This document shows positions 5,136-38,262 of a stretch of DNA of 43,265 nucleotides, piece by piece. The notes beneath the pieces were generated by a model. The model did no database searches. It saw nothing but the letters and a program-made list of their open reading frames with translations, and was not told where the DNA came from. Each line of letters opens with the position of its first letter. The stretch's first letter is position 1. The DNA lies in sequence record PQ850619.1; one strand, 5' to 3'. Source of the stretch: Escherichia phage MarieHeimVoegtlin_Bas70. Both the position numbers and the translations under genes were made by a program.

Positions 5136-5167
5136 TGAATAGTACCCTATTATATTGGGGTGTGCAA
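5136..5167 (-). promoter_or_regulatory. sigma70-like promoter (TTGCAC-N17-TACTAT) with embedded AATAG-N4-CTATT palindrome
   Basis: Read on the minus strand: TTGCAC, 17-nt spacer accccaatataataggg, TACTAT. The 32-bp block is identical to 14240-14271. Confidence 0.55.
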
Positions 5168-5442
5168 ACTATTTATTTACGTATTCCAGTTATTCCTCCG
5201 AATTGTAAATGTTGGAATAAACTATTCGAATAGTTGACTTTTCACTAAAAATATGATAAGCTCCACCTGAGCTTGTGAAGTATGAACAAGCGACCGCGGC
5301 GCGGGCAGGTAACGGAGCGGGACGTAAGTCCTGAGTGTAGTTACGCTGACGCGTTCGGAAGGGCCATACTCTATTGCTTGTGTAAAAAGTAACTGGTTTA
5401 CTGAGATTACGCCGTTTCTATGTTTAAATGATAAGGACTAGC

Positions 5443-5469
5443 GCCCCGCTTTATGGCGGGGCTTTACTT
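5443..5469 (+). terminator. hairpin, weak terminator or attenuator
   Basis: gccccgc-tttatg-gcggggc perfect 7-bp stem followed by TTTACTT, just upstream of the spanin gene Shine-Dalgarno. Confidence 0.35.
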
Positions 5470-5486
5470 ATCGAGAAAGGGGAAAC

Positions 5487-5873
5487 ATGAATCTTAAAGC
5501 AACTGTCGTAGCAGGAGCATGTTTCATCATCCTGGTTTACGCACACGGCATCTACCAGTATCGCAGCGGATGGAACGAAGGCCGGGCTAATCTCGTTTCG
5601 CAGCAACAGCAGAAAGCACAGGCTGAGTTAGCGAAGAAAACACAACGGCAGCAGCAGGATGAATCGAAGGCCGCCGCCGCTGACAACGAAGGCAAGACGA
5701 AATCAGAGGTGATTACCCGTGAAGTCGTTAAGTACATTAAAACGCCTGGTCGCAGTGTGTGCGCTTTTGACCCTGAGCGCGTGCAGCTCAAGTCCCGCGC
5801 CGTCGCAAACGCCAACTCCATCCCCGGATACGACGATGATGCAGCCGCCGTGCAAACTGGCACCGCCAAGTAG
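5487..5873 (+). CDS. i-spanin (Rz-like inner membrane spanin)
   Basis: 128 aa. N-terminal transmembrane segment ATVVAGACFIILVYAHGIY. Then a Q/K/E-rich predicted coiled-coil periplasmic region. An overlapping +1-frame lipoprotein gene follows. Confidence 0.6.
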   Translation: MNLKATVVAGACFIILVYAHGIYQYRSGWNEGRANLVSQQQQKAQAELAKKTQRQQQDESKAAAADNEGKTKSEVITREVVKYIKTPGRSVCAFDPERVQLKSRAVANANSIPGYDDDAAAVQTGTAK

Positions 5874-5982
5874 CGACGCCGACGAGGATTTGGCTATCGA
5901 CGTTCAGAACGCTGAATGTGTACGGCAACTGAGGCTGAAAGTGTTTATGTTGCAGGATTACGTGAGGAATATTCTGGAATAG
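5719..5982 (+). CDS. o-spanin (Rz1-like outer membrane lipoprotein)
   Basis: 87 aa. GTG start with AGAGGTGA Shine-Dalgarno. Signal peptide ending in lipobox LSAC. Proline-rich mature region SSSPAPSQTPTPSP. Starts inside the i-spanin gene in another frame and extends past its stop. Confidence 0.55.
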   Translation: MKSLSTLKRLVAVCALLTLSACSSSPAPSQTPTPSPDTTMMQPPCKLAPPSSDADEDLAIDVQNAECVRQLRLKVFMLQDYVRNILE

Positions 5983-6064
5983 TTGCCTTGCATGTTGGAA
6001 TAATTTATTCTTGACATGTAAATCCGGGTGGCCCGGGTTCCAACGTCCAGGGGACATACTGACT

Positions 6065-6769
6065 ATGAATCGTTTTTTACGTTATCCGTTCCAGGAAGAA
6101 GCTGGGGCAGAAGATAAAGCTGGTGGCGGTGACGCGCCGAAAATGTTCACCGCTGAAGAAGTTCAGGCGCTGATTGAGAAAGAAGTTGCCGGGCTTAAGG
6201 CTAATCAGGAAGCATTGTTGGCGGAGAAGAAAGAAGCCGCTCGCAAAGCAAAAGAGGCCGAAGAAGAACGGCAGCGCGCGCACCAGGAGGCGTTAAAAGC
6301 CGCTGGTAAGATGGACGAGTTCGAAAAGACGATTCGTAGCCAGTATGACCCGGTGTTAGCCGAGAAAGACGGTCGCATCTCCAGAATGGCAGAGCGTATC
6401 CTCGGCAGCGAACGTAAAGCGGTGCTAGGCTCTTTCGCGGGTGACTTTATTACCCCGGAAGCAGTGGACATTCTTGCGCCGTTCGTTAAGACTGAGTTCG
6501 AAGGCGATGATGTGGTTACTAAGTTTGTTGGTGCAGACGGTAACGTAATCACGACTGACCCGGAACAGTTCCGCAAATACCTGCGCGAACACAAGGCGTT
6601 TTCGCATTTGATTAAAGCAAATGCAGCTTCCGGCGGCGGGGCTTCCGGTAGCAAAGGCGGCGGGGCCGCACCAGCGTTTAAAGACATGAGTGAAGCGGAG
6701 CGTATCGCTCTGTACGAATCGAACCCTGCCGAATTTGAACGGCAACTTAAAGCCCTGAGGAAAAAATAA
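6065..6769 (+). CDS. scaffolding protein (putative)
   Basis: ATG at 6065 with AGGGGA Shine-Dalgarno; track ORF begins upstream at 6011. Charged A/E/K-rich helical sequence. Immediately precedes the capsid gene with an ATGA overlap. Confidence 0.5.
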   Translation: MNRFLRYPFQEEAGAEDKAGGGDAPKMFTAEEVQALIEKEVAGLKANQEALLAEKKEAARKAKEAEEERQRAHQEALKAAGKMDEFEKTIRSQYDPVLAEKDGRISRMAERILGSERKAVLGSFAGDFITPEAVDILAPFVKTEFEGDDVVTKFVGADGNVITTDPEQFRKYLREHKAFSHLIKANAASGGGASGSKGGGAAPAFKDMSEAERIALYESNPAEFERQLKALRKK

Positions 6770-7818
6770 TGGCAATTACTACTATCGGCGACATCGTAAC
6801 TGGTAAAGAATCGGTAATCCTGTCCTACATGACAGAGGACCCGGTAGAGAAAACCGCGTTCTTCCAGTCCGGTATCCTTACCTCGACTCCGTATGCCGCC
6901 GCTATCGCAAACGGCCCGTCCAACAAAGCGGTCCTGCCGTACTGGAAAGCTATTGATACCTCTATCGAGCCGAACTACTCGAACGACGTATATCAGGACG
7001 TCGCCACCCCGCGTAACGTGCAAACCGGTGAGATGGATGTTCGCGTAGCTTACCTGAACGAAGGTTTTGGTCAGGCTGACCTGACGGTAGAACTGACCAG
7101 CCAGAATCCGCTGCAATCCGTGGCTTCCCGTCTGGATAACTTCTGGCAGCGTCAGGCACAACGCCGTCTTATTGCTACCGCGCTCGGTCTGTACAATGAC
7201 AACGTAGCGGCTACCGATGCATACCACGAGCAGAATGACATGGTGATCGACGTTTCCGCTACTATGGGCTTCGACTCCGGTGCGTTCATCGACGCTACCC
7301 AGACTATGGGTGACGCGCTGATGGGTAACGGCGGTGAAGTGCTGGGGGCTATCGCGATGCACAGCTTCGTTTATGCGCAGGCTCGTAAGCAGCAGCTTAT
7401 CGACTTCATCCGTGATGCTGACAACAACACCATGTTCGCCACCTACCAGGGCTACCGTGTGATTGTTGACGACAGCATGACCGTAGTCGGTACTGGCGGC
7501 AGCCGTAAGTTCATCTCCATCATCTTCGGCAACGGCGCTATCGGTTACGGTGAAGGTTCTCCGTCAAACCCGCTGGAATACGAGCGCGAAGCGTCTCGCG
7601 GCAACGGCGGTGGCGTCGAAACCCTGTGGACCCGTAAGACCTGGTTGCTGCATCCGTTTGGTTACAGCTTCACCAGCGCAGTAATCACTGGCAACGGCAC
7701 CGAGACTATCGCCCGCTCTGCTTCATGGCAGGACCTGGCGAACGCTTCCAACTGGAACCGCGTTGTTGAGCGTAAGCATGTACCGATTGCCTTCCTGGTA
7801 ACTGGTGTCGGGGCTTAA
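6769..7818 (+). CDS. major capsid protein
   Basis: 349 aa ORF after the scaffold gene, followed by a strong hairpin terminator. Call rests on position and size. Confidence 0.65.
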   Translation: MAITTIGDIVTGKESVILSYMTEDPVEKTAFFQSGILTSTPYAAAIANGPSNKAVLPYWKAIDTSIEPNYSNDVYQDVATPRNVQTGEMDVRVAYLNEGFGQADLTVELTSQNPLQSVASRLDNFWQRQAQRRLIATALGLYNDNVAATDAYHEQNDMVIDVSATMGFDSGAFIDATQTMGDALMGNGGEVLGAIAMHSFVYAQARKQQLIDFIRDADNNTMFATYQGYRVIVDDSMTVVGTGGSRKFISIIFGNGAIGYGEGSPSNPLEYEREASRGNGGGVETLWTRKTWLLHPFGYSFTSAVITGNGTETIARSASWQDLANASNWNRVVERKHVPIAFLVTGVGA

Positions 7819-7834
7819 GGTTAAGATATAATCG

Positions 7835-9271: not shown

Positions 9272-9273
9272 AA

Positions 9274-12440: not shown

Positions 12441-12466
12441 AAGGCCCCTTTCGGGGCCTTTTTCTC
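12441..12466. terminator. bidirectional intrinsic terminator
   Basis: aaggcccc-tttc-ggggcctt hairpin with AAAACT on the 5' side and TTTTTCT on the 3' side. Sits between convergent genes ending at 12436 (+) and 12465 (-). Confidence 0.7.
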
Positions 12467-12695
12467 ACTCATCAATATTACTTCGATACTCCCGTAACTT
12501 CTCCAGACTTTCAATTGCTTCTGCTAAGTCGGTTCCGGTGTCCTTATGCCCGCGAAGACCCATGCACAATAACTTCTTCAATGCGTGCTGTAGTGCGGGG
12601 TCACGGATGTCGAAGGCACGGAGAACATCGTAAACGTCTACGGTCATAGTGCTGCCGTGAGTGTTTGTCATTGTTCGGTTGTATTTTGAAGTCAT
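12465..12695 (-). CDS. hypothetical protein (76 aa), cassette member
   Basis: ATGA overlap with the upstream phosphoesterase gene, so likely co-translated. Last gene before the terminator. Confidence 0.5.
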   Translation of the reverse strand: MTSKYNRTMTNTHGSTMTVDVYDVLRAFDIRDPALQHALKKLLCMGLRGHKDTGTDLAEAIESLEKLREYRSNIDE

Positions 12696-13822
12696 CCCAG
12701 CATCTCCGGTGAAATAGTTAAACGTGCGACCTCGCCATATTCGGCGCTATAAGTAATTACATTTGCACTACGGCCTGACATCCACCCGCCGCGGGAGGCA
12801 TAGGCGTCTTTAGCCGCTAAGGTGCGGTGTTGCTCAACAATCATGTTACGGCTTTCTACAATCTTCTGGTGGTGCAGGTGGCCTACGTGGGCGTAGCTAT
12901 AGACACTCTCACCGAACGCTTTGCGGAATTTGGCAATCATAACCGGTTCGATAGCATCGAATCGCGCCTTATGCCCGTGGTGAAAGAACAACGTCGTTTT
13001 TCCGTGTTGCACCATCTTGTAAACATCCGGCGACGTATCGACAATCACTCGGCTGTCGTTCGAATATAAAACTGTGAACATTTCAGCCAGCCATACAGAG
13101 CCTACAGGGTCATGGTTCCCCTGTACGATAAGCAAGCGAACATTTTTATGTTTAACCAGTGCCATATCTACAACACGGCGTACCATACGAATCATGTAGC
13201 GGACGAGTTTCTGGTAGCGAGTGTCTGCGTCCAACACGTGACGCGACTCAGGTGTAACGGCATCCAGACTATCGAAGTGCGCGAAATCACCCAGCAGGTT
13301 AATAACTCCTGTTCCTGCATCCGGTGCTTTCTGAAACGCCGCGTCGAACCAACGAGAGAACAGGTCTTCCGCAATCTTTATATCCCAGTCGTCGCCGCTC
13401 TCGTCGGCCCAGGCAAGCATACCGAGATGGAAATCAGATACCGTGTAAAGATTGAGTAGCTTGTCGTCGCGTTTGGCTCGAGTCGCTTTAGCCGGCGCAA
13501 CTGGCGTAATCTCTGACTTCATGCCTTCAATCACGGCTTTCATCAACTCGACCTGACGTTCAGCGTCGGTGTCTGTCTTAACCCATTGCAACTTAGTATT
13601 GCCGAACTCGTCTACCAGAGACGACGTCCCTTTAATCTTGTAGCCGTCTGGGACAAGGTGGCTAACGTCACGCCCGTGGCCTACACCTTTCTTAGCCAGC
13701 TTCGCTTTACGGATACGAATAACTCGGTCTGAGATGCCGTATTTACGGGCGATGTCTACATTCTTCATCCCGGCGTTCAATTCTTCCTGTAACTGTTCGT
13801 CGGTTATTTTCTTCTGGGCCAT
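12692..13822 (-). CDS. HTH domain-calcineurin-like metallophosphoesterase fusion
   Basis: 376 aa. N-terminal helix-turn-helix NVDIARKYGISDRVIRIRKAK. Then ordered metallophosphoesterase motifs: SDFH (DxH), LLGDFAHFD (GDxxD-like), QGNHD (GNHD/E), HHGH, VGHLHH (GHxH). Encoded antisense to the tail genes. Confidence 0.7.
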   Translation of the reverse strand: MAQKKITDEQLQEELNAGMKNVDIARKYGISDRVIRIRKAKLAKKGVGHGRDVSHLVPDGYKIKGTSSLVDEFGNTKLQWVKTDTDAERQVELMKAVIEGMKSEITPVAPAKATRAKRDDKLLNLYTVSDFHLGMLAWADESGDDWDIKIAEDLFSRWFDAAFQKAPDAGTGVINLLGDFAHFDSLDAVTPESRHVLDADTRYQKLVRYMIRMVRRVVDMALVKHKNVRLLIVQGNHDPVGSVWLAEMFTVLYSNDSRVIVDTSPDVYKMVQHGKTTLFFHHGHKARFDAIEPVMIAKFRKAFGESVYSYAHVGHLHHQKIVESRNMIVEQHRTLAAKDAYASRGGWMSGRSANVITYSAEYGEVARLTISPEMLG

Positions 13823-13887
13823 GCTTACTTCCTCGTGTTTAGGATTTGTCCTATTTAACCACAGTGGATTCCTTTAAATAAAGGCAA

Positions 13888-14214
13888 CTATTTACTTTCT
13901 GCGCCTATCGCCCACCCTGTCATTACCATTTGCAGACGGGTGGCTGTCAGTAGGCTATAGAAAGCATCTCCGTTTTTCTCTACCGAACGTATCACTGTGT
14001 AGGTTACGGCCTGCGGGGGTAGGCCCGATTTACCAACCTCCACGGCGGCCTCACACTCGCGAACTGTAGAGTCCTTGAACGCCTTTACAATAGTAGGGTC
14101 GGCTTTATCAAGCACACCAGAAGTCATAAGAACAGATTCACTAAATACCTGTTCGCACGGGGCTCCAAAAGTAGCAAAAGACATAAAACCCAGAGCTAGT
14201 ACTAATTTACGCAT
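13888..14214 (-). CDS. small secreted/periplasmic protein (108 aa)
   Basis: N-terminal signal-peptide-like MRKLVLALGFMSFATFGA. GAGGAA Shine-Dalgarno. Own promoter at 14240-14271. Confidence 0.55.
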   Translation of the reverse strand: MRKLVLALGFMSFATFGAPCEQVFSESVLMTSGVLDKADPTIVKAFKDSTVRECEAAVEVGKSGLPPQAVTYTVIRSVEKNGDAFYSLLTATRLQMVMTGWAIGAESK

Positions 14215-14239: not shown

Positions 14240-14271
14240 TGAATAGTACCCTATTATATTGGGGTGTGCAA
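14240..14271 (-). promoter_or_regulatory. sigma70-like promoter (TTGCAC-N17-TACTAT) with embedded AATAG-N4-CTATT palindrome
   Basis: 32 bp identical to 5136-5167. Positioned about 25 nt upstream of the 13888-14214 start codon on the minus strand. Confidence 0.55.
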
Positions 14272-24275: not shown

Positions 24276-24276
24276 A

Positions 24277-25832: not shown

Positions 25833-26618
25833 TTACGGCCCCATGAACGCCTTTATAAATTCAGCGGCTACTTGCGGGACGATAGCATTGCCGTAACCGC
25901 GCAATCGTCCCACTCTGGCGGGTACCCCATTAGCCAGCGGGAATGTGCTGGGTTCAACTGGCCTGAATTTTCCATCCCGGCATCCGAGCCAGTCAGCATC
26001 TGACCAGAACCCGTTAGGCGGATTGGCTGTGTCAGAGATGCCTCTGTTTGCAGATTGTGGCCCCCGTTCCTGCCCTGATGGCCTGCTCCCGCCGAGTTGT
26101 TCGCACACGGTGTTGGCCAGTTGCTGCGCTCCGAAGAACAATCGATTCCTTTTGTGCGGTGCGCCGACGCTACAAGCTGGGAGTACGGCAAACCCGACGG
26201 CGTAGTCTTCTCTTTCCAGGTGAGTTTGTAAATCGCACATCCACGATTTTGCAATTGCTGCCGCAACCTGCTCCCCAAAGATGACTGGAGGGTGGCACTC
26301 GCTGATGAGGTCGAGGAGCACAGGTGCGAGGTGTCTCTGGTCGAACTGTCCGAGTTGCTTTCCTGCCGTGCTAAACGGTTGGCAAGGCGGACTTCCCGTC
26401 CATATAGGCGTATCTTCAGAAACTCCCGCAAGTCTGAGCGCGAGAGGCCAGCCGCCGATACCCGCGAAAAAATGACACTGGGTGAACCCGTCAAGGTCTT
26501 CTGGCTTAACTTCGGTAATGCTTCTTTCATCTACAACTCCAAAAGGTATGTGACCCTGTTTTATCAACTCACGCAGCCACGCGGCTGCGCCTTTATCCCA
26601 TTCATTGTAATAGTTCAT
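25833..26618 (-). CDS. DNA (cytosine-5)-methyltransferase
   Basis: 261 aa. Motif I FAGIGG, motif IV PPCQPFS (catalytic PC), motif VIII-like HKRNRLF, C-terminal GNAIVPQVA. Confidence 0.8.
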
Positions 26619-26806
26619 TTCGCCACCAGAACTAACTCTTTACGCCCGAACGCCGTAATATTGCCGGTTACATCTTCGATAACCAGTTTACCGTTCGACT
26701 CGACGAACACTGTATCAACGGCAACAGGACGACGGGTCTTAACGTTGAAAATCATGTCGCCTGGTACGATGTCACGTGCAGGTTTGCGGTCATATTCGTG
26801 TTTCAT
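26615..26806 (-). CDS. hypothetical protein (63 aa)
   Basis: ATG with AAGGAA Shine-Dalgarno. ATGA overlap with the methyltransferase gene. First gene downstream of the leftward promoter at 26840-26868. Confidence 0.5.
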   Translation of the reverse strand: MKHEYDRKPARDIVPGDMIFNVKTRRPVAVDTVFVESNGKLVIEDVTGNITAFGRKELVLVAK

Positions 26807-26836
26807 TTCTCAATTCCTTATATTGTTGGTGTAGGA

Positions 26837-27121
26837 CTAACTATAATAGTTCGCTATTAGGTCGTCAACCTGTTTGAACGAACCAACGACAAAAACATTT
26901 GCACCACGTTTACGCATCCGCTCGTGCTCTCGTATCTGGTGCGGGTCTGGCTTCGTGTTTTCGTCTTTCTTAACCTCGACGAACCAGACGATGCCGCCAG
27001 GGAGAATTACCAGCAGGTCGGGAGCGCCGGAACGCCCCTCGTAGGAAAGTTTACGAACGAGGCCCCCAAGGGCCTCAAATCGCTCTTTTGCGTATTTCTG
27101 GATGCGGCCCTCTTTAGTCAT
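26837..27121 (-). CDS. VRR-NUC domain nuclease (PD-(D/E)xK)
   Basis: Start taken at internal ATG 27121 (track ORF extends to 27301 from a TTG). Motifs GAPDLLV and VWFVEVKK fit the VRR-NUC D...E.K core. Confidence 0.55.
   Translation of the reverse strand: MTKEGRIQKYAKERFEALGGLVRKLSYEGRSGAPDLLVILPGGIVWFVEVKKDENTKPDPHQIREHERMRKRGANVFVVGSFKQVDDLIANYYS
26840..26868 (-). promoter_or_regulatory. sigma70-like promoter (TTGACG-N17-TATAGT) with AATAGTTCGCTATT palindrome in spacer
   Basis: Minus-strand reading gives TTGACG, 17-nt spacer, TATAGT. Same architecture as the promoters at 30401-30429 and 32950-32978. Confidence 0.55.
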
Positions 27122-27270
27122 GACCGCAGCATCCAGGTAAGGAAAGCCCCGCCTAGAAGGGCAACACCGGCAAACTGAAAGAACAGGCCGTAACAGAACA
27201 TAGCAGCTATTCCCGCACCGAGTAACAGTGCGAGCATGGTTACTATCGACCCGAATACAAACATTCTCAT
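27118..27270 (-). CDS. hypothetical small membrane protein (50 aa)
   Basis: ATG with GAGGGG Shine-Dalgarno. Two hydrophobic segments. ATGA overlap with the VRR-NUC start. Hand-translated. Confidence 0.3.
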   Translation of the reverse strand: MRMFVFGSIVTMLALLLGAGIAAMFCYGLFFQFAGVALLGGAFLTWMLRS

Positions 27271-27352
27271 AACACGCACCCCTCACGTTTGGTATGCTCA
27301 ATACCGCAGCGCGGGCAGATTCGACAGTCTTCTTCGTAGAACCGGTAAATTT

Positions 27353-27484
27353 TCATTCCAGCACCCACAGATAAATTGCGATGAACATGCCCAATATGGC
27401 AACCATCATGCCGTATTGACCCTCGTGACAGTAGACACCTGCGGCAAATCCCGCCAGTACCGCGATAATCAGTTTACTTAGCAT
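27353..27484 (-). CDS. hypothetical small membrane protein (43 aa)
   Basis: ATG overlapping the last codons of the polymerase gene. Almost entirely hydrophobic (MLSKLIIAVLAGFAAGVYCHEG...). Hand-translated. Confidence 0.3.
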   Translation of the reverse strand: MLSKLIIAVLAGFAAGVYCHEGQYGMMVAILGMFIAIYLWVLE

Positions 27485-29654
27485 AGCGTTTTAACTCCTG
27501 ACCTTCCGCTACAAGAGGGAACCCCTCCGCCCATTCTGGTAATTCGCACATCAATCGCTCAAGCTCTGCGACATTGTATTCCGGCGTATCTGGAGTTTCG
27601 CAGATAATCTCATCGTGGACATGAAGTACAATTGGATAACCGTTTGCTTCTACGTTCAGCAGCGCGTTGGCCAGCAAATCACGGCACAACGCCTGAGTGC
27701 AGTTTTCCACCAGTTTACCAGAGTAGGTGTACTGGAAGCCCCACTGCCGGGTTAACTGGTTTTCGCCCTGGTACTTGATGCGCACGTTAGTAGACACCTT
27801 TCCATCTTCGTCTGTCTCTTTCGACACACTTAATCCGACGCCCGGGTATGACATAACGCGACCCGACGGCAACGTCATGCGCAACCACCAGCCCGCGACT
27901 TTGTCGCCGTTGTTGTCTGTCTCTATGTTACGCGAAAACTTAACGCCTCGCGGTCCTGCGGTGAACTCTTTACCTGGATTGCGGATAGCGGCCATAGCTG
28001 CGTCTTCAATATCTCGCCAGAAAGCTACTGTTTCAGGGTGTGACTCTCGCCACATACGCTTGATAGCGTCACAGGTACGCCACACTTTCTTATCAAGAAT
28101 ATACGATGGTCGGTCATCCTTCTCCCCGGGTCGCGGCGGTCGCTTGGCTTCCTGAATACGTGCCCATTCATAGCCGCGTGCAGTAGCCGCCCAGATGTGG
28201 TCCGGGAAAGTACCGTCCATTGTTTTTGACATATCAACAAGGTCAAGTCCGAGGTTCTTAGCAAACTGAACGAAAGCGCCAACACCACCAGCGTAGCCGA
28301 GGCCAAGCTCGCAGGCTTTACCAATCTGGCGCAAGTCTTTGCGTTCCTTCTTAATGTAATCCGGCTCCATGCCGAACATCTTACCCGCGGTTACACAGTA
28401 AATGTCCAGCCCGGCGCGGAACGTATCTAGCGCGGTTTCTTCGCCTGCCAGCCACGCAAGCCCCCGACCTTCAACGTTAGAGTAATCGGCGACGACAAAC
28501 TTATGTCCAGCTTCCGGTATAATGCAGCTACGAACGGTAGATGCCGTCAGCTTGGCTACGTCAAATCGGCGGTGCGCCCGGCCCTTAAGTAACGCTGAAA
28601 TGCCTTTATCCAGTTCATCATCATGATAGTACCCACGCGCCAGGTTCTGTGGCTGGAAGCCTTTACCCGCGAACCGTAACGTACGCTTTGCCCCACCGTA
28701 CTGGATACAACCGCGGCGTCGGTCGTCCGACGAGCGGCCTAACAGCAGCGGGTTATATTTCGTGGGCGCTGTTGACGCGGCCCCGAGGCGCATTTCTATA
28801 ATCGCGCGGGCGTCGTCCGGTAAATCATCGTCCGCCAGCAGGTCGTTAAGCGTTGACTTCTGTGCATTGTGTATGCGGTGCGCGGGCGCAAGTTCACGCA
28901 GAATCGGAAGGAAGTCTTTACCGGTAAGCGAGCCGCCGTATTTACGTTGAGCTTCTTCCTGTAACTGTGCCTTGTGCTTCTCTACGGCTTCAATCGCGGC
29001 TTCCGCCAGTGCGACGTCAACCTTAAATCCGCGGTCGTTGATTAACTGGTCAAGTTCCAGTACACGGTCTTCGAATTCGGAGTTACCCCACCGCGGCAGC
29101 TTATGGAACACTTCACGCATCGCTGTGATGTCACTCACGGCATACTTGATAAACAGCGCCCACTCATCCGGGTGCGTTTCCGCGGTATAGCGGCGGATTT
29201 TGTAGTTCTTCGGCGTCGGTTTAGAGAAACGCTTAATCAGAGCCTTGCCGCGTTTATCTTTCGCGTTGTCTGCAGACACGCCCAGCACTTCGCACAGCGC
29301 ATCAAGAGAACCCGGCAGCGCGTGACGGAACGCCCAAATCATAGTATCAATGGTGTTGCTTACCGGAATATCAAATCCCCAGCAGTGCTTCATGACGAGC
29401 CTATCGAAAAGTCCACCGTTGTGCCACACCATCTTGATGCGGCTGTTGGGCTTAACAAGGCGGCGCAGTGCGCGGTGTAAATCCCCCGGCATGTCGCTGC
29501 CGTCGGTGCAATCCCATACCCGCACAGGTTCGTCGTCAAAAGCATATGTACAGATAAGCACTTCGGTTGACGGGTGTTCGGCGTAAGCGTAAGAACCGAC
29601 TTTCTTCAAATCGGCTTCTGAGAATGTTTCAAAGTCTAAGAACAGGTAACTCAT
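27474..29654 (-). CDS. DNA polymerase, family A, with 3'-5' exonuclease domain
   Basis: 726 aa. Exo I motif LDFETFS. Motif B-like RQIGKACELGLGYAGG. Motif C VLHVHDEI. ATG with AGGGG Shine-Dalgarno. Confidence 0.85.
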   Translation of the reverse strand: MSYLFLDFETFSEADLKKVGSYAYAEHPSTEVLICTYAFDDEPVRVWDCTDGSDMPGDLHRALRRLVKPNSRIKMVWHNGGLFDRLVMKHCWGFDIPVSNTIDTMIWAFRHALPGSLDALCEVLGVSADNAKDKRGKALIKRFSKPTPKNYKIRRYTAETHPDEWALFIKYAVSDITAMREVFHKLPRWGNSEFEDRVLELDQLINDRGFKVDVALAEAAIEAVEKHKAQLQEEAQRKYGGSLTGKDFLPILRELAPAHRIHNAQKSTLNDLLADDDLPDDARAIIEMRLGAASTAPTKYNPLLLGRSSDDRRRGCIQYGGAKRTLRFAGKGFQPQNLARGYYHDDELDKGISALLKGRAHRRFDVAKLTASTVRSCIIPEAGHKFVVADYSNVEGRGLAWLAGEETALDTFRAGLDIYCVTAGKMFGMEPDYIKKERKDLRQIGKACELGLGYAGGVGAFVQFAKNLGLDLVDMSKTMDGTFPDHIWAATARGYEWARIQEAKRPPRPGEKDDRPSYILDKKVWRTCDAIKRMWRESHPETVAFWRDIEDAAMAAIRNPGKEFTAGPRGVKFSRNIETDNNGDKVAGWWLRMTLPSGRVMSYPGVGLSVSKETDEDGKVSTNVRIKYQGENQLTRQWGFQYTYSGKLVENCTQALCRDLLANALLNVEANGYPIVLHVHDEIICETPDTPEYNVAELERLMCELPEWAEGFPLVAEGQELKRYAK

Positions 29655-29671
29655 TATTTTTGACCCCTAGT

Positions 29672-29698
29672 AAAAAGGCCCAATGAAGGGCCTTAGTT
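29672..29698 (-). terminator. intrinsic terminator (minus-strand orientation)
   Basis: On the minus strand: aggccc-ttcatt-gggcct followed by TTTTTAC. Lies between the ssDNA-binding protein gene and the polymerase gene. Confidence 0.6.
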
Positions 29699-29714
29699 AA
29701 AATTGATTCAGATA

Positions 29715-30341
29715 TTAGCGGCGACGACGTTCACGGCGCGGTGCTTCATCTTCTTCGTCATCTTCCAGGTCATTGACGCTCGCGGCGACTTTAGAACCGC
29801 CGAACGCTTTGCCTTCGCCAACGTATTTAATCGCCAGCAGGTTAACGCCGAGGACTTTGTATTTCTGGCTGAACCAGATTTCAACGCTTACGTTAGCTAA
29901 GCATCCGCTGTAAACCTGTTCACCTTCAATCTGTTCGCCGTCTACGTTGAAGTCCTGCTCTACCTGAGTCTCACCTTTTTTAGAGGTTACAATCAGCGGC
30001 TGTTTCTGTGCCTTCGCTTTGAAGTAGAAGCCTTCCGGGAAGTCTTCAAACGGATTGTCGCGCTCGGCAATGTCTTTAATCGCGCATTTATCCATGTGCT
30101 TACCTTCACCGTAGTTGGACTTCATCCATTTCTCGGCAGCGGCTGCGCCTAACGCTTCTTCAACTACAGCGTAAACGGTGTCGTAGAGTGCATCGATTTG
30201 AGCATGGTCAGACGGCAGGATGATAGTCGCGCTGTACTGGCCTTTAGTGATTGAGCCATCATCGTTTTCACGGTCTTTTTCACGTTCAAATACGTTAACC
30301 CAAGCAGTGTTTACTTTACGCAGATTCAGTTTAATACCCAT
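29715..30341 (-). CDS. putative ssDNA-binding protein (DUF2815-like)
   Basis: 208 aa with highly charged C-terminal tail DLEDDEEDEAPRRERRRR. Adjacent to the polymerase and a PD-(D/E)xK nuclease, the usual neighbourhood for such proteins. Followed by its own terminator. Confidence 0.45.
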   Translation of the reverse strand: MGIKLNLRKVNTAWVNVFEREKDRENDDGSITKGQYSATIILPSDHAQIDALYDTVYAVVEEALGAAAAEKWMKSNYGEGKHMDKCAIKDIAERDNPFEDFPEGFYFKAKAQKQPLIVTSKKGETQVEQDFNVDGEQIEGEQVYSGCLANVSVEIWFSQKYKVLGVNLLAIKYVGEGKAFGGSKVAASVNDLEDDEEDEAPRRERRRR

Positions 30342-30400
30342 CGTGATTTCTCGCTTTTAAGTTTCGTTTACTCCGGGAAGCTGCCCGGTCAGTGATTAGA

Positions 30401-30429
30401 ACTATAATAGCTAACTATTCAGGTGTCAA
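30401..30429 (-). promoter_or_regulatory. sigma70-like promoter (TTGACA-N17-TATAGT) with AATAGCTAACTATT palindrome in spacer
   Basis: Minus-strand reading gives TTGACA, 17-nt spacer, TATAGT. Embedded in the 3' end of the 30415-30618 ORF. Confidence 0.55.
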
Positions 30430-30618
30430 ATAAAATTTCGCAATACGGACTATGTTCTCGAAATCATTCATATCAACGGGTTCGAATTCATCCTCCACAT
30501 GGTTGTATCGCACCATCGTGCCGTTCAGGAACGTAAACGATTCCGAATGGATATAACCGCCCCAGCGCCATATCATCACAAAATCTTTATCTGTGGGCAT
30601 TTCATTTACTTGAATCAT
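30415..30618 (-). CDS. hypothetical protein (67 aa)
   Basis: ATG with GGAGGA Shine-Dalgarno. Overlaps the stop of the upstream nuclease gene. Confidence 0.45.
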   Translation of the reverse strand: MIQVNEMPTDKDFVMIWRWGGYIHSESFTFLNGTMVRYNHVEDEFEPVDMNDFENIVRIAKFYLTPE

Positions 30619-31856
30619 TCTAAATCCTCCTCTGTTACCCTATTCCACTCAGGACGTTTGTCGTCTGCCGTTGCAACACATGGTGCGCCTGGCTTACGGG
30701 TAATGAAGTCTTTCAGTTCTTCTTCCGGTATGACTTTAACCGCTTCGGTTGGCGTCATGAGCACTTGCTTCATTAGCGCTATGCCATACTTGCCAGCCAC
30801 TTTCTCTGCGTCTTTCCACGCACGATTGCCCGGGCGGCCCTCAACCAGCTTGTACCCCGGCACTTTCTTACCGGAATGCAACGCGGTGGCCATCGCTTTC
30901 TCAACCTTGTCGATGTGCTGGCGCAACAACGGCAACTTCTCATATTCAGCTACGAGTTGCTCCGGCGTAAGTTCCAGCGCAAAGTCGTCCTCCAGTTCTT
31001 CCGCCAGTACAGAGTTAACGGTTTTTGTACGCGCGGCACACTGTTCAGAGAACCGACACCACTGACAACCATCTACAGACGGCTTGAAATCAGATGCTTT
31101 CAGGTTCTTCTTACCGCGGAAATACGCATCAAGCGCCAACAGTGCACGTTTCTTGGCAAACTTAGCGAACAGTTCAAGGCCTTCAACCGAGATGTCCCAC
31201 TCCGACGCGCCGCCAGTGTACGGCTGGAAGATTACCAGACGAACAACTGTTATGTTATAACGTCTCTTGAGTCGGCGATAAACACCGAGAGCGTAAAGCA
31301 TAAGCTGTTTGTTTTCTTTCGCTTCGACACGATGCCGCCCGGTTTTCAGGTCGCCGATAATGAGCATGTGCTCGTCGGTGTTTGCCAGTTCCTGTACAGC
31401 AACGAGGTCAGCGGTTCCGAACGTCTCAACGCCTTCATACCCCGGATGCAATACCTCAGTAAGATTGACACGCATTTCCAGCTTGGCGTAAGTCGCTACG
31501 TCTATAATCGCTTTGCAGTAGTCGGTGTACTTGCGCACCTGCTCAATCATGTCCGCCGTAATCAGTACCGCGCCTTTCATCGGGCTGATTAGCGCCTTAA
31601 TCTGACCTTTACCCTCATCCAGCACGTAAGCACCGACTTCACGTTCTAACGGCAGCGCAGTGCCACGGATATAGGCGTTTAGGTGCACTTCTGCGATTGT
31701 ATGGCATGCGGTCCCCGTAACGGCAGCTTTACCTGACGTGTTAGGAATATCTTTTTCACAGGCCAGTGATGCACTGCACGTCAGCCACTTCTTAGCACCT
31801 GACGGCGACAATAAGGCGTGCACATCATTATTGCCACCGCGTTCTTTTAGAATCAT
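30615..31856 (-). CDS. PD-(D/E)xK nuclease with Cys cluster (Cas4/RecB-like, DUF2800-like)
   Basis: Start taken at ATG 31856 with GGGAGAA Shine-Dalgarno (track begins at GTG 31871). Motif GDLKTG...QLMLYALG. Cysteines in WLTCSASLAC and CQWCRFSEQC suggest an Fe-S cluster. Confidence 0.6.
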   Translation of the reverse strand: MILKERGGNNDVHALLSPSGAKKWLTCSASLACEKDIPNTSGKAAVTGTACHTIAEVHLNAYIRGTALPLEREVGAYVLDEGKGQIKALISPMKGAVLITADMIEQVRKYTDYCKAIIDVATYAKLEMRVNLTEVLHPGYEGVETFGTADLVAVQELANTDEHMLIIGDLKTGRHRVEAKENKQLMLYALGVYRRLKRRYNITVVRLVIFQPYTGGASEWDISVEGLELFAKFAKKRALLALDAYFRGKKNLKASDFKPSVDGCQWCRFSEQCAARTKTVNSVLAEELEDDFALELTPEQLVAEYEKLPLLRQHIDKVEKAMATALHSGKKVPGYKLVEGRPGNRAWKDAEKVAGKYGIALMKQVLMTPTEAVKVIPEEELKDFITRKPGAPCVATADDKRPEWNRVTEEDLE

Positions 31857-32125
31857 GCTCTGTTCTCCCACTGGTCAATTAAATGCCGTGTCTTGTGGTC
31901 GCAATGTAAGGCCCATCCATACATCGACTCGAAGACATAAAAGTCGGGCTTGGCGAATGTCGTGCGTTTAATCCGCGACACGTGACGACCTATATCTTTA
32001 GGACGCGGTACTTTGCCTAAGTACGCCATCTCTTCCATCTGGTGCGCACCGGACGGCGCACGCAACAGCCACAACGCCTCTGTGTTATCCCGCCTGTCTA
32101 CGGCGCGGTAGAGTTGGTAAATCAT
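31853..32125 (-). CDS. hypothetical protein (90 aa)
   Basis: ORF with ATGA overlap to the downstream nuclease gene. No motif recognised with confidence. Confidence 0.4.
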   Translation of the reverse strand: MIYQLYRAVDRRDNTEALWLLRAPSGAHQMEEMAYLGKVPRPKDIGRHVSRIKRTTFAKPDFYVFESMYGWALHCDHKTRHLIDQWENRA

Positions 32126-32168
32126 ATTTCCGCCCCTCCGTTAAAGCGGCCCGAAGGCCGCCTGATAG

Positions 32169-32669
32169 TTATTCTTCTTCGAAATACTTGTTCTTGATTG
32201 CTGTCAAGCGTTCCAGGTATTCAGCCAGGTCTTCGTCTTTAATCGCTGCAATCTTCATTTTCTTACCTGTGAACTCTTCCAGCAGTTCATCAGAATCATC
32301 GCACGCGGCATCGCTCGGACCTTCGTTAATTGCATCGTCGATAGCCTGAATCTGGTCGCGCAGAGACTTATAGTCTACTTCTTCTTTCTCTTCTTCCGGC
32401 TCTGGCGTCGTTTCCTCTACTTTAGCTTTACGCGGCTTGCGTTTTGGCTTCTCTTCTTCTGCCGGTTTAGTGTCAACGATGTCTTCACCTTCTGCCGGGA
32501 TTTCTTTTGTTGCTTCTTCAGCGCACTCAGCTACCGCTTCTTTGGTGTACGATACAGTCTCTACTTCCAGCGGCGCGGCAACCTGAACAACTTGTTTCGC
32601 ACTGTTCGCGGCAATCAGTTCATGTGCAACTACGAAACGTTCCAGCAATACTAAGAATTTCTCTAACAT
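32169..32669 (-). CDS. highly acidic hypothetical protein
   Basis: 166 aa, very rich in E/D (for example PEPEEEKEEVDY, DDSDELLEEF). In the replication operon. Confidence 0.5.
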   Translation of the reverse strand: MLEKFLVLLERFVVAHELIAANSAKQVVQVAAPLEVETVSYTKEAVAECAEEATKEIPAEGEDIVDTKPAEEEKPKRKPRKAKVEETTPEPEEEKEEVDYKSLRDQIQAIDDAINEGPSDAACDDSDELLEEFTGKKMKIAAIKDEDLAEYLERLTAIKNKYFEEE

Positions 32670-32693
32670 TTGTTTCTCTCCTGTTTGTGTAAG

Positions 32694-32921
32694 TTACTCA
32701 CCGTCGCCTTCAGTAAGGCTATCGTCTATTAGTTCAAATTTACCGTTTGAGTGTTGAATAGCTTCTTGCCCGCAATGGTCACAGACAACAAGTTTATCGA
32801 ACCCATCAAACTCATCCCCTACTACGCAAGAAAGTACAAATTTATGTTTTGTGCACACTTCTTGCGGAGCGCCGAAAATTGCTCGAAAACCTTTAGCTAT
32901 GGCCCCAGTGATTGTGTTCAT
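32694..32921 (-). CDS. small zinc-ribbon-like protein
   Basis: 75 aa with four Cys/His spaced as C...C...CDHC. GAGAGGGG Shine-Dalgarno. First gene downstream of the leftward promoter at 32950-32978. Confidence 0.45.
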   Translation of the reverse strand: MNTITGAIAKGFRAIFGAPQEVCTKHKFVLSCVVGDEFDGFDKLVVCDHCGQEAIQHSNGKFELIDDSLTEGDGE

Positions 32922-32949: not shown

Positions 32950-32978
32950 ACTATAATAGCGAACTATTCACATGTCAA
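32950..32978 (-). promoter_or_regulatory. sigma70-like promoter (TTGACA-N17-TATAGT) with AATAGCGAACTATT palindrome
   Basis: Minus-strand reading gives TTGACA, 17-nt spacer, TATAGT. Divergent from the HTH regulator gene at 33043. Confidence 0.6.
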
Positions 32979-33042
32979 TGGGCTTTTCTAAAATAATTAA
33001 TATGGTACTATTCACATATCAACTGACTAAGGAGTAATTGAC

Positions 33043-33258
33043 ATGCAACCATCTGAACTAGGTATCCGTGTAGAACAACGCCGTAAAGAACTCGGCATCT
33101 CCCAGCGCCGTTTGGCGGCCCTGACCGGCGTTTCCCAGGGCGCGATTAACCAACTGGCACTTGGAGTAACTCAGGACGTCCGCCCGGCAACGCTGTTCAA
33201 ACTGGCGGAAGTTCTGGAAGTAGACGCCAAGTGGCTGGCGTTAGGTGAAGGGGCTTAA
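33043..33258 (+). CDS. XRE-family HTH transcriptional regulator (Cro/CI-like)
   Basis: 71 aa. Classic HTH ISQRRLAALTGVSQGAINQL. AAGGAG Shine-Dalgarno. Sits in a divergent promoter region carrying the repeated palindrome. Confidence 0.7.
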   Translation: MQPSELGIRVEQRRKELGISQRRLAALTGVSQGAINQLALGVTQDVRPATLFKLAEVLEVDAKWLALGEGA

Positions 33259-33275
33259 AGCCCCTTTCTTTTTAC
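33248..33275 (+). terminator. intrinsic terminator
   Basis: ggggct-taa-agcccc hairpin overlapping the stop codon, followed by TTTCTTTTTACC. Confidence 0.6.
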
Positions 33276-35704: not shown

Positions 35705-35995
35705 TTACCGTTTAGCCAACCCTTCCAGCAAATTTTTATACTCTTCAAAATATTCCTCGACCAAATCATCGCCGAAATAGAAGTCGATATACTCGAGATT
35801 ATCTCTTACGTTAAGCGATGCCGACATGGTGCTTAGTTGGCGTAAGCTAATTAGCTTCATTTCTGTTTCTACGCAGAAAGGCCGGTAGGTATCAAGATGG
35901 CAAGAGATATTGAAGCATAAAGCGAACTCTCCGGCCACGGAGTGAACCGTATACACTTCGTTTTCTGCTTTATTGTGGAAAATTACGCCTTTCAT
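35705..35995 (-). CDS. hypothetical protein (96 aa)
   Basis: ORF overlapping the upstream HTH gene stop. No recognisable motif. Confidence 0.4.
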   Translation of the reverse strand: MKGVIFHNKAENEVYTVHSVAGEFALCFNISCHLDTYRPFCVETEMKLISLRQLSTMSASLNVRDNLEYIDFYFGDDLVEEYFEEYKNLLEGLAKR

Positions 35996-36174
35996 TTCAC
36001 GTTCTCCTTAATCCATGCTTCGACTTTATTACGGTCAAATGTTCCCGGTAAACGGCGGCCCATAACCTTAATACAGCAGTCAGGGAATTTGCCGCTGCGC
36101 AACCAGTTATTAATCGTCTGACGTGTCACCCCGATACGTTCAGCTACTTCATTCTGCGTCATATAATGCGACAT
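35992..36174 (-). CDS. small HTH DNA-binding protein (excisionase/AlpA-like fold)
   Basis: Start taken at ATG 36174 with AGGAG Shine-Dalgarno (track ORF extends to 36288). HTH in MTQNEVAERIGVTRQTINNWL. 60 aa. Confidence 0.55.
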   Translation of the reverse strand: MSHYMTQNEVAERIGVTRQTINNWLRSGKFPDCCIKVMGRRLPGTFDRNKVEAWIKENVK

Positions 36175-36271: not shown

Positions 36272-36301
36272 TTGAAAGTTCTTGACACATGTTTGTATAA
36301 T
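36272..36301 (+). promoter_or_regulatory. sigma70-like promoter (TTGAAA-N18-TATAAT)
   Basis: TTGAAA at 36272-36277, 18-nt spacer, TATAAT at 36296-36301. Rightward, divergent from the HTH gene promoter. Confidence 0.5.
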
Positions 36302-36307
36302 GGTTTT

Positions 36308-36527
36308 GGGACTTGTATATATTACGGAGTTGACGAACCCTCCCCGAGGGATTCGTCAACCCCTCCCAGACAGCTGAGATGCTTGCCTTGTGGTTTAAGG
36401 ATAAGTGTATCTAAATCTCATTTAAAGAAGTAACCCGCTGAAATATCTACTGTTTCTTAATGTGCCGTAGATTCGCAACCGTAAAAATGTAACGATTATT
36501 GGGCAGGCTTAAGCCTGCCCTTTAGTT
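36308..36527 (+). ncRNA. candidate small noncoding RNA or structured leader
   Basis: Bounded by the promoter at 36272-36301 and a hairpin terminator at 36501-36527. No ORF longer than about 11 codons. Strong 5' hairpin at 36329-36360 (9-bp plus 5-bp stem). Confidence 0.25.
36501..36527 (+). terminator. intrinsic terminator
   Basis: gggcaggc-ttaa-gcctgccc perfect 8-bp stem followed by TTTAGTT. Confidence 0.5.
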
Positions 36528-36592
36528 ACCAAGTAATAAGAATAAAGGCACAACCCTCCCCGAAGAATCACAACGGCAACGTAACTATTCTC

Positions 36593-36621
36593 TTGCACAC
36601 CCCAACATAATAGGTTACTAT
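36593..36621 (+). promoter_or_regulatory. sigma70-like promoter (TTGCAC-N17-TACTAT) with AATAG-N4-CTATT palindrome
   Basis: Reverse-orientation copy of the 5136/14240 promoter block with two mismatches. About 35 nt upstream of the gene at 36656. Confidence 0.55.
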
Positions 36622-36655
36622 TCACTTATCGAAACGAGACATAAGGAATTTAGAA

Positions 36656-36874: not shown

Positions 36875-36886
36875 GACAGAGGAGTG

Positions 36887-37296: not shown

Positions 37297-37338
37297 TATT
37301 TTAATTGTCAGCGCTGTTTATGTGGGGTGGAGGTTGAT

Positions 37339-37533
37339 ATGAGTCCATATAATGAATTCCGCTTACGCCGTCTTGTTGGTGGGCTGCGCGCCGCCGAGTT
37401 TGGCGTTGAATGTTGGGAAAAGGCGAAGTACACCCCATGGAAGTCGTGGAATTTGGCCCACGCTAAGGCGGTAGCGCAGTACCGGGAGTACAAGTTAAAT
37501 AGTTTCCTAAAGCACCACGGGGTAGAGCTATGA
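37339..37533 (+). CDS. hypothetical protein (64 aa)
   Basis: ATG with GGAGG Shine-Dalgarno. Track ORF begins at GTG 37327. Confidence 0.45.
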   Translation: MSPYNEFRLRRLVGGLRAAEFGVECWEKAKYTPWKSWNLAHAKAVAQYREYKLNSFLKHHGVEL

Positions 37534-37673
37534 GAGAAGCATTCGAACGATGGGCCGTAGTCGAGGGTCTGCCGGTTAACAAGGGTTCGAAGAAAGAGTA
37601 CCTGAACGTTAAGACGCGTCTTGCGTGGCGGGCGTGGAAAGCTGGTGCGCAAGCTGTGATGAATAAGGGGTGA
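37530..37673 (+). CDS. hypothetical small protein (47 aa)
   Basis: ATGA overlap with the upstream stop. Ends 3 nt before the next ATG. Hand-translated. Confidence 0.3.
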   Translation: MREAFERWAVVEGLPVNKGSKKEYLNVKTRLAWRAWKAGAQAVMNKG

Positions 37674-37676
37674 TTT

Positions 37677-37871
37677 ATGGGTAAGTGGATTAAGTGTAGT
37701 GAGCGGATGCCGGGTGACTTTGAAGATGTCCTGGTTTCGGATGGGGGTAACGTTGAGGTGATGTGGTGGGACTGCGACGGTTTCTGGGATTGTTGGGCGC
37801 CGCGCAACTCAAACATCGATATAGACGATGTGACTCACTGGATGCCGTTACCTGAGCCGCCAGAAGTGTGA
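37677..37871 (+). CDS. hypothetical protein, DUF551-like (W/C-rich, C-terminal WMPLPEPP)
   Basis: 64 aa. The C-terminal W.PLPEPP motif is characteristic of a widespread small phage protein family. Confidence 0.45.
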   Translation: MGKWIKCSERMPGDFEDVLVSDGGNVEVMWWDCDGFWDCWAPRNSNIDIDDVTHWMPLPEPPEV

Positions 37872-38014
37872 TGTTATATTGTAACAATAGTTTGGGATTT
37901 TACTGAGTGACTTACGCTGCTACACAGCAGCGTACAACTTTAGATTAGTGTCGTCAAAAAGCGACACTTTCACCAAACGCAACAATCGAAGTGACTATTG
38001 CAGGAGACGCAACA

Positions 38015-38182
38015 ATGATTACTAAAGAACAAGCGCAATCATTATATGATGCGATTATCGCAGTTGCAGAGGCACACGCGGACTACGCAACAGCGGATTA
38101 CTATAGTGTTGACGACGCTGGGGGTAGGAAACGCGAGGCCGAGACAAATTTATGGGATGTGTTGCAGAGGATGACCTCGTAA
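38015..38182 (+). CDS. hypothetical protein (55 aa)
   Basis: ATG with AGGAG Shine-Dalgarno. Track ORF begins at GTG 37991. Confidence 0.4.
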   Translation: MITKEQAQSLYDAIIAVAEAHADYATADYYSVDDAGGRKREAETNLWDVLQRMTS

Positions 38183-38222
38183 CCTGTCCCGTGGTGACAA
38201 TACAAACACCAATAAAATTTAC

Positions 38223-38251
38223 TTGCGCACTTATATAGAATAGGATACTAT
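38223..38251 (+). promoter_or_regulatory. sigma70-like promoter (TTGCGC-N17-TACTAT) with AATAG-N4-CTATT palindrome
   Basis: TTGCGC, 17-nt spacer, TACTAT. Palindrome AATAGGATACTATT at 38239-38252. Confidence 0.5.
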
Positions 38252-38262
38252 TCATTTACACG

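Follow-up and report, generated by a model that had tools for sequence, protein, structure and literature searches.

A palindromic promoter element in the Kagunavirus MarieHeimVoegtlin_Bas70 as a candidate operator for a phage-encoded 434-Cro-like protein

Escherichia phage MarieHeimVoegtlin_Bas70 (sequence record PQ850619.1) is a virulent Escherichia coli siphophage of the genus Kagunavirus (Guernseyvirinae). The stretch of DNA analyzed here, referred to below as the window, is its complete, collinear genome of 43,265 bp, with the small terminase as first gene; long stretches are 96–97% identical to the phages KMB35, Bas73, and Bas75. Coding sequence makes up 90% of the genome, and the intergenic DNA amounts to 4.4 kb with 43% GC. 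We describe a 14-bp palindrome, AATAG-N4-CTATT, that recurs in the promoters of this genome, and consider which protein may bind it. The gene layout, obtained by annotation transfer from relatives, is as follows:

1–24245, plus strand: packaging, head, and tail genes
4908–5111 and 12465–14214, minus strand: two moron units interrupting the structural block
24274–32921, minus strand: replication genes
33043–33258, plus strand: XRE gene, alone on its strand
36174–33276, minus strand: operon whose first gene encodes a 60-amino-acid HTH_17 protein and whose last gene encodes the primase-helicase
From 36656 on, plus strand: early and lysis genes

Annotation transfer and family searches of the small open reading frames (ORFs) revealed no RNA polymerase and no sigma factor, and the large ORFs are all assigned to packaging, structural, or replication proteins. 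An integrase, a CI-type repressor, and a second XRE gene are likewise absent from the window and from its annotated relatives. Family searches of the window proteins identified two helix-turn-helix proteins, XRE and HTH_17, and no other recognizable sequence-specific DNA binder.

The exact palindrome occurs seven times, starting at positions 5138, 14242, 26845, 30406, 32955, 36609, and 38239. These copies, together with a one-mismatch copy at 32999, had been listed in an initial annotation made from the sequence alone, and all were found again. Genome-wide, 0.02 exact copies are expected, and none of 100 dinucleotide shuffles reached seven; copies with at most one mismatch number 12 against 0.98 expected. 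The AT-rich context of promoters, which the initial annotation had recognized as a possible trivial cause, does not account for these frequencies: with a null confined to intergenic DNA (2,000 shuffles), the counts are 7 against 0.009 for exact copies and 11 against 0.27 for copies with at most one mismatch, and the maxima in any shuffle were 1 and 4, respectively. An unbiased count of all palindromes of the form 5-Nx-5 gives AATAG-N4-CTATT first place in the window, as it does in Salmonella phage Jersey; terminator stems rank next. Five of the seven exact copies are wholly intergenic, and the remaining two are at gene junctions. Of the five one-mismatch copies, four are in promoter-like intergenic DNA, and the one inside the primase gene (35337) is probably there by chance. 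In its extended form, (T/A)(G/T)AATAG-N4-CTATT(C/A)(A/T), the element is a 7-4-7 dyad.

Promoter context was checked base by base, with sigma70 matches scored out of 12 hexamer positions. The main copies lie in sigma70-type promoters with 17-bp spacers, directly upstream of genes:

5139–5167, minus strand: promoter A1 with putative operator; −35 TTGCAC at 5167–5162, 17-bp spacer, −10 TACTAT at 5144–5139; palindrome AATAGGGTACTATT (minus-strand reading) at 5138–5151, intergenic, center −12.5; target, a 67-amino-acid moron at 4908–5111, minus strand
14243–14271, minus strand: promoter A2 with putative operator; 29 bp identical to A1; palindrome at 14242–14255, center −12.5; target, the minus-strand moron operon 14214–12465 (108-amino-acid secreted or lipoprotein-like protein, 376-amino-acid metallophosphatase/exonuclease, 76-amino-acid protein)
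26840–26868, minus strand: promoter B1 with putative operator, TTGACG-N17-TATAGT (10/12), within the final codons of the VRR-NUC/resolvase gene; palindrome in the spacer at 26845–26858, center −18.5; targets, orf63, C5 methylase, and helicase
30401–30429, minus strand: promoter B2 with putative operator, TTGACA-N17-TATAGT (11/12); palindrome at 30406–30419, center −18.5; targets, the SSB-like gene at 29715–30341 and DNA polymerase
32950–32978, minus strand: promoter B3 with putative operator O1, TTGACA-N17-TATAGT (11/12); palindrome at 32955–32968, center −18.5; divergent from the XRE gene; target, the leftward operon from 32921 to 30415 (75-, 166-, and 90-amino-acid ORFs, exonuclease, and others)
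32999–33012, plus strand: putative operator O2, AATATGGTACTATT, one mismatch, in the XRE gene's own promoter, overlapping the −10 TACTAT at 33006–33011; 44 bp from O1
36593–36621, plus strand: promoter A3 with putative operator, TTGCAC-N17-TACTAT; palindrome at 36609–36622, center −12.5; target, the rightward early operon from 36656
38223–38251, plus strand: promoter A4 with putative operator, TTGCGC-N17-TACTAT; palindrome at 38239–38252, center −12.5; target, the operon from 38283 (DUF7170 gene through holins and endolysin)
41332–41365, plus strand: possible weak operator ACTAGTTGACTATT at 41332–41345, over the −35 of TTGACT-N17-TATATT (41337–41365; 10/12), center −33.5; just past a terminator and facing small-gene, terminase, and structural genes
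5229–5262, plus strand: possible weak operator AATAGTTGACTTTT at 5229–5242, over the −35 of the rightward promoter TTGACT-N17-TAAGCT (5234–5262), center −33.5

The dyad is thus centered at −12.5 in five sites, at −18.5 in three, and at −33.5 in two degenerate ones. Promoters of the −18.5 class are leftward, of the form TTGAC(A/G)-N17-TATAGT with the dyad in the spacer, and with scores of 10–11/12 they rank near the top of the genome's sigma70 matches. In the −12.5 class the dyad overlaps the −10 hexamer TACTAT; four members have the form TTGC(A/G)C-N17-TACTAT and score 7/12, under the scanner threshold, and the fifth, the copy at 32999, has the same −10 with essentially no −35. That copy can alternatively be read as covering the transcription start of a better-scoring promoter, TTCACA(32967)-16-TAAAAT(32994). 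All eight main sites are followed, 23–59 nt past the −10, by an ORF on the correct strand with a Shine-Dalgarno sequence. The mismatch at 41332 falls in the opposite half of the dyad in the Jersey ortholog (AATAGTTGACTAGT). The promoter of the HTH_17/primase operon and that of the neighboring noncoding unit carry no palindrome.

The placement of the palindrome in sigma70-like promoters in two registers, as initially annotated, is borne out for both classes, with the amendments that the sites at 5229 and 41332 add a third register and that the TTGCAC class is weak by consensus. The statement that the XRE gene sits between two copies was mistaken, as the copies at 32955 and 32999 are both upstream of its start at 33043. 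The regulon proposed at the same time, of replication, early, and moron genes, agrees with where the sites are placed, namely at the replication operons, the rightward early operons, and the minus-strand morons, to which the regulator's own gene can be added.

The element was compared across about 50 Kagunavirus and Jerseyvirus genomes or loci, each site being represented by 2–39 unique orthologous sequences. All of these genomes or loci carry the dyad at orthologous promoters, with 2–8 exact copies per locus. Relatives at a greater distance (St162-like, Klebsiella 37P2-like, Dhillonvirus, and prophage-like loci) essentially lack it. Per-site footprints show conservation at its maximum in the half-sites and a drop in information exactly at the N4 center; the rest of the spacer also varies while the half-sites stay invariant. 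One ortholog in Jersey has the dyad 7 bp from the −35, centered by base count at −15.5, which constitutes a fourth register. Registers therefore shift by 3, 6, and 21 bp. A fixed contact with RNA polymerase could not accommodate the shifts of 3 and 6 bp, nor could a face-specific activator. Half-sites that are fixed in two registers and in both orientations relative to transcription have the properties of a repressor operator, not of a sigma70 contact. These comparisons support the earlier suggestion that the palindrome is the site of a dimeric DNA-binding protein and does not reflect RNA polymerase contacts.

Whole-genome palindrome counts in four XRE-bearing relatives (St162, Otaku, Klebsiella 37P2, and L055) were limited by noise, and two signals emerged. 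St162 has imperfect AWTA-N6-TAWT dyads at orthologous promoters (L003 9671, 9734, 13004, 13665, 25360, and 26799), with 9 observed against 2.2 expected. The Serratia phage Otaku has a single perfect site, AATAGAATACTATT (L007 32211), 4 bp past TTGACA and upstream of an SSB-like gene, which is the ortholog of the 30406 site. Both phages lack an HTH_17 gene. The operator may predate the Kagunavirus/Jerseyvirus clade. Some Kagunaviruses also have an exact copy in the early rightward region that is not found in the window, AATAGCTTACTATT at 36765 in LM02P1 (L004) and AATAGGTTACTATT at 14662 in locus L020, with no obvious −35.

The XRE gene (33043–33258, plus strand) encodes a 71-amino-acid protein, here proposed as the repressor; after the gene comes an intrinsic terminator (33247–33267). 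The protein matches PF01381 HTH_3 (E = 3.9e-13, 49.7 bits, cut-off 23), and its PHROG matches are families of transcriptional repressors. Its best solved relatives by phmmer are 434 Cro (71 amino acids, aligned end-to-end, E = 8.5e-6), the DNA-binding domain of 434 repressor, and P22 c2. The AlphaFold model has five helices at a predicted local distance difference test score (pLDDT) of 78, and a Foldseek search with it gave template modeling (TM) scores of 0.72–0.80 to 2cro, 3cro, 1pra, and 3jxb; the fold matches include 434 Cro, P22 c2-operator complexes, SinR, and C.AhdI. In identity, then, XRE is 434-Cro-like. Both O1 and O2 fall in the 121-bp divergent region upstream of its start. All motif-bearing genomes have the gene, as do all motif-anchored IMG/VR loci with three or more copies, and the IMG/VR scan, in which many fragments did not reach the region, returned no palindrome-rich locus without it. 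Of the two binders originally proposed, XRE and HTH_17, it is XRE that survives.

With moderate confidence, we interpret AATAG-N4-CTATT as the operator of a phage-encoded dimeric repressor, for which the 434-Cro-like XRE protein is the most probable candidate; from the sequence comparisons we infer that XRE binds the dyad as a dimer. The mechanism would be as follows. Host RNA polymerase would transcribe everything from sigma70 promoters. Because each operator is positioned over the core of such a promoter (spacer, −10, or −35), a bound dimer is predicted to block RNA polymerase sterically. Early in infection all of these promoters would fire, including XRE's own, with the weaker O2 beside O1. 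Accumulating XRE would then turn down the three replication-operon, two rightward early, and two minus-strand moron promoters as well as its own gene, and the two late-facing promoters, which have degenerate sites only, would be spared for longer.

This proposal might be extended to a genome-wide timer of a "Cro-only" kind, which we offer tentatively, as a possibility we hold with less confidence than the operator itself. In that model, virulent Kagunaviruses and Jerseyviruses would run their early and middle program, comprising at least eight promoters including those of morons in the structural block, through one 434-Cro-like protein without CI, and the early-to-late switch would be set by perfect sites on early, replication, and moron promoters versus deliberately degenerate sites over the −35 of two late-facing promoters.

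The base that flanks the core (position −8) co-varies with the XRE recognition helix: G has a frequency of about 0.45 with the helix SQGAINQ and 0.01 with SQSLITH, independently of the HTH_17 helix variant and of the absence of HTH_17. The direction is that expected for XRE binding, but the co-variation is confounded with clade and comes from essentially two independent lineages. Several observations weigh against XRE as the repressor. The recognition helix reads Q-G-A-I-N-Q in Kagunavirus and Q-S-L-I-T-H in Jerseyvirus, with 48% overall identity between the proteins, yet the 5-bp core is identical. The St162-like, Klebsiella 37P2-like, and Otaku genomes encode XRE homologs (about 40% identity) but show no comparable regulon. 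The operators adjoining the XRE gene are the least perfect, especially in Jersey, and the −12.5 promoters are weak enough that sequence alone would also allow activation. As for timing, the sole RNA sequencing study of a Kagunavirus (K1B4) sampled 5–120 min, over several infection cycles, and is too coarse to be informative. It places a gene annotated with a helix-turn-helix domain among four early genes and a "sequence-specific DNA binding" gene beside the AAA primase in the middle class, under a gene numbering that could not be matched to the deposited record.

If XRE does act as proposed, the nearest precedent is phage 434. The 434 operators are 14 bp long, with conserved outer bases and an uncontacted center. 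The window's sites resemble them in length, in conserved outer bases around a variable 4-bp center that is presumably uncontacted, and in overlapping core promoter elements; XRE has the same length as 434 Cro, aligns with it end-to-end, and matches the 2cro and 3cro folds at 39–40% identity; and in both cases a divergent promoter region beside the regulator gene holds two operators. Unlike 434, this phage is virulent and has no CI partner, integrase, or lysogeny module, its operators are spread over 8–10 promoters across the genome instead of one immunity region, the half-site is AATAG where that of 434 is ACAA, and recognition-helix positions 29, 30, and 32 differ. The P22 operators have a 7-4-7 layout, and the synthetic P22 operator ATTTAAG-ATAT-CTTAAAT has an innermost AG-N4-CT, as does the dyad described here. 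The extended TGAATAG-N4-CTATTCA is likewise 7-4-7, as in the P22 c2/Cro operators (2r1j, 3jxb), and P22 c2 appears in both the sequence and the fold matches; the sequence match is, however, weaker than that to 434 Cro, and XRE has no C-terminal oligomerization domain.

Lambda Cro and Mu Ner are small, early-made repressors that turn down early promoters, including their own, as infection proceeds. They offer a functional analogy to the role proposed for XRE, with the difference that they act on one or two early promoters in a temperate switch, whereas the putative regulon here belongs to a virulent phage and takes in its replication, early, and moron promoters. The C proteins of restriction-modification systems (C.AhdI, C.BclI) are small XRE-fold dimers on palindromic promoter boxes that time expression, and they are among the top fold matches. 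They differ in regulating only their own operon, as concentration-dependent activator/repressors at paired boxes, and there is no restriction-modification context here. The divergent CI and the integrase of a lambdoid immunity switch are both missing, and the gene that diverges from XRE is the first of a replication operon. By analogy, the system would work like 434, P22, or lambda Cro on early promoters; it would not be a lambdoid immunity switch, because it has no CI partner and no lysogeny module.

An operator that is real but bound by something other than XRE is unlikely, although it deserves to be weighed first. The binder could be a phage protein without a recognizable DNA-binding domain, or a host factor common to E. 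coli and Salmonella. In favor of this reading, the core motif is the same in Kagunavirus and Jerseyvirus despite the different XRE helices; many small early proteins have no assigned function, and the two host genera are closely related. With respect to the host, we know of no E. coli regulator with an AATAG-N4-CTATT dyad; the OxyR-type dyad, ATAG-N7-CTAT, differs from it in spacing, and the motif is missing from St162, a phage of Salmonella, which shows that the host is not its sole determinant. On the phage side, a phyletic profile of all window proteins left orf63, orf43, and HTH_17 as the only small conserved proteins restricted to the motif-bearing clade. The orf63 product (26615–26806, minus strand; phrog_4879), limited to that clade, is 92–96% identical between Kagunavirus and Jerseyvirus. 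Its model is an all-beta SH3/KOW-like barrel (pLDDT 90), and fold and family searches gave no significant structural or DNA-binding match. A lineage with a 19-residue deletion in orf63 keeps the palindromes that its locus covers. On the strength of the fold and this lineage together, orf63 was rejected as the binder. Viable lineages of orf63 (also P0047, P0048; L209 10001–10135) carry in-frame internal deletions of 18–19 residues.

Still less probable, in our judgment, is that there is no dedicated binder and that the palindrome reflects duplicated promoter cassettes or an intrinsic sigma70 feature, for example −10-like elements that overlap or promoters that work in both directions. Duplication has certainly contributed, as A1, A2, and A3 have about 33 bp in common and clearly arose in this way. 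The right half-site extends into the −10 hexamer (into TACTAT, or as far as the first T of TATAGT), the 14242 site reads GTTACA-17-TATATT on the opposite strand (9/12), and the St162 promoters have a similar spacer element joined to the −10. Against this, the dyad is the sole sequence common to both promoter classes. One class has the left half-site at −19 to −15, the other at −25 to −21, and no single sigma70 element fits both positions. The invariance of the half-sites beside a varying N4 center and nondyad spacer points the same way. Bidirectional or overlapping −10 elements were rejected because a usable −35 is missing on the opposite strand at most sites.

HTH_17 as the binder, whether as a repressor or as an AlpA- or Q-like factor loaded at the promoter, is highly improbable and is largely refuted by natural variants. 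The 60-amino-acid, excisionase/MerR-like protein is encoded at 35992–36174 (minus strand) and forms with orf96 a module, 35705–36174, upstream of the primase-helicase. Its candidacy had looked attractive: in the first ten complete genomes the motif and HTH_17 occurred together in six of six cases and were absent together in four of four, the protein is 80–84% conserved between Kagunavirus and Jerseyvirus, its own promoter is free of the palindrome, and the early K1B4 gene with an annotated helix-turn-helix domain may be the same gene. Two Kagunavirus loci, L019 and L020, nevertheless have HTH_17 and orf96 replaced by unrelated genes for 47- and 149-amino-acid proteins and keep every orthologous palindrome, and at least four recognition-helix variants of HTH_17 occur with an unchanged motif. 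The perfect site in Otaku and the related dyads in St162 likewise exist without the gene. The helix-turn-helix begins at residue 5, with no AlpA-like N-terminal segment, the variable register is incompatible with loading of the Q/AlpA type, and the protein has no significant relative among solved structures. HTH_17 is shown by these loci, as orf63 is by its deletion lineage, to be dispensable for retention of the motif, and the replaced loci together with helix variants unlinked to the motif led to its rejection as the binder. Two specific forms of such a model were also rejected. A MerR-type spacer operator needs a 19–20-bp spacer and a coiled-coil dimer, and here the spacer is 17 bp and HTH_17 is a dispensable 60-residue protein without a coiled coil. 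A Q/AlpA-type antiterminator loading site needs a fixed position, and here the register varies and the motif persists without HTH_17.

The module that replaces HTH_17 and orf96 lies at 3624–4209 in L019 and 12559–13144 in L020 and consists of a Zn-ribbon-like 47-residue ORF and a 149-residue ORF for which Pfam has no match; HTH_17 with orf96 is a swappable cassette. In these loci the primase-helicase diverges as well, over its N-terminal third, which suggests a linked module, possibly with a role in origin or initiator specificity.

The repeat itself has been published twice already, and the operator reading appears to be new. In fBC-Eco01 (PMC9825357; GenBank OM272052), PHIRE reported the consensus tgAATAGTa-ccTATTat-T in seven copies, annotated "phage promoter 1-7," and the PHIRE list for VB_EcoS-Golestan (PMC7203180, Table S4) includes TAATAGGGTACTATTCATTA, TAATAGCGAACTATTCACAT, and TAATATGGTACTATTCACAT; these are the same sequence element at orthologous positions. 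Several of the same promoters are annotated simply as sigma70-like in the Jersey record. The PHIRE reports call the motif a promoter; they mention no repressor and note neither its dyad symmetry nor its position, in several registers, within host-type promoters. Our literature search found no description of it as a dyad, operator, or regulon.

The fBC-Eco01 paper credits the motif to a phage-encoded RNA polymerase, an idea to which we give almost no credence: although the element is PHIRE's dominant repeated 20-mer and carries the "phage promoter" label in GenBank, the idea is refuted by gene content, with no RNA polymerase or sigma factor gene and all large ORFs accounted for; every copy also lies between or over a host-type −35 and −10 at 17-bp spacing, and the palindrome occurs in both orientations relative to transcription, unlike promoters of single-subunit polymerases. 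A function at the RNA level was dismissed on the grounds that the dyads are upstream of transcription starts and that Rfam finds nothing in the window.

Kagunaviruses and Jerseyviruses rank among the phages isolated and put forward most often for therapy and biocontrol of E. coli and Salmonella, in which the group is widely used, and although several hundred genomes are available, their transcription program is essentially unstudied. Reading the palindrome as an operator would correct a misannotation ("phage RNA polymerase promoter") that published papers and GenBank now carry, would give a testable model of temporal control in a virulent siphophage without its own polymerase, and would explain how minus-strand morons are wired into the phage program. 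It would also supply a compact candidate repressor-operator pair, a 71-amino-acid protein and a 14–18-bp site, for engineering these phages. The type of mechanism is not itself new; if true, this is a genetic switch of an ordinary kind.

Some features of the surrounding DNA deserve mention. The replication operon contains a C-5 cytosine DNA methylase gene (PF00145; 25833–26618, minus strand). Jersey has a C-5 methylase annotated at the same position with no detectable similarity to that of the window, and fBC-Eco01 has none. The palindrome was considered as a target of the enzyme and rejected, as fBC-Eco01 keeps the motif without the gene; the methylase has no relation to the palindrome.

Immediately past the portal-gene terminator, at 3335–3348, the one-mismatch copy TATAGTATGCTATT is the remnant of a leftward promoter of the TACTAT type without a −35. 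In fBC-Eco01 the same spot holds a minus-strand moron with a complete palindrome-bearing promoter (L005 3371–3919), and the spot is a recurrent moron insertion point.

The segment 5229–5470 (plus strand) comprises the promoter TTGACT-17-TAAGCT, a short Arg-rich ORF (MNKRPRR...; 36 amino acids in the Bas75 annotation), and a terminator at 5443–5462, with a folding z score of −1.9. This cassette behaves as a small mobile unit, because a copy of it is found at a different place in L020 (13240–13400), where the replaced HTH_17 module and the early operon flank it.

A further unit, at 36272–36528 (plus strand), separates the HTH_17/primase operon from the rightward early operon. Its near-consensus promoter, TTGAAA-18-TATAAT (11/12), precedes about 215 nt without a convincing ORF and an intrinsic terminator at 36501–36520. 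The predicted RNA has a minimum free energy of −70.5 kcal/mol against −48.9 ± 4.1 kcal/mol for shuffled sequences (z = −5.3) and no match in Rfam, and the unit is a candidate phage small RNA. Finally, the leader of the SSB-like gene (30341–30401, minus strand), downstream of the 30406 promoter, contains the hairpin CCGGGCAGCTTCCCGG. Its conservation extends to Jersey and further relatives, and it may have a regulatory or stabilizing role as an element of the 5′ untranslated region.

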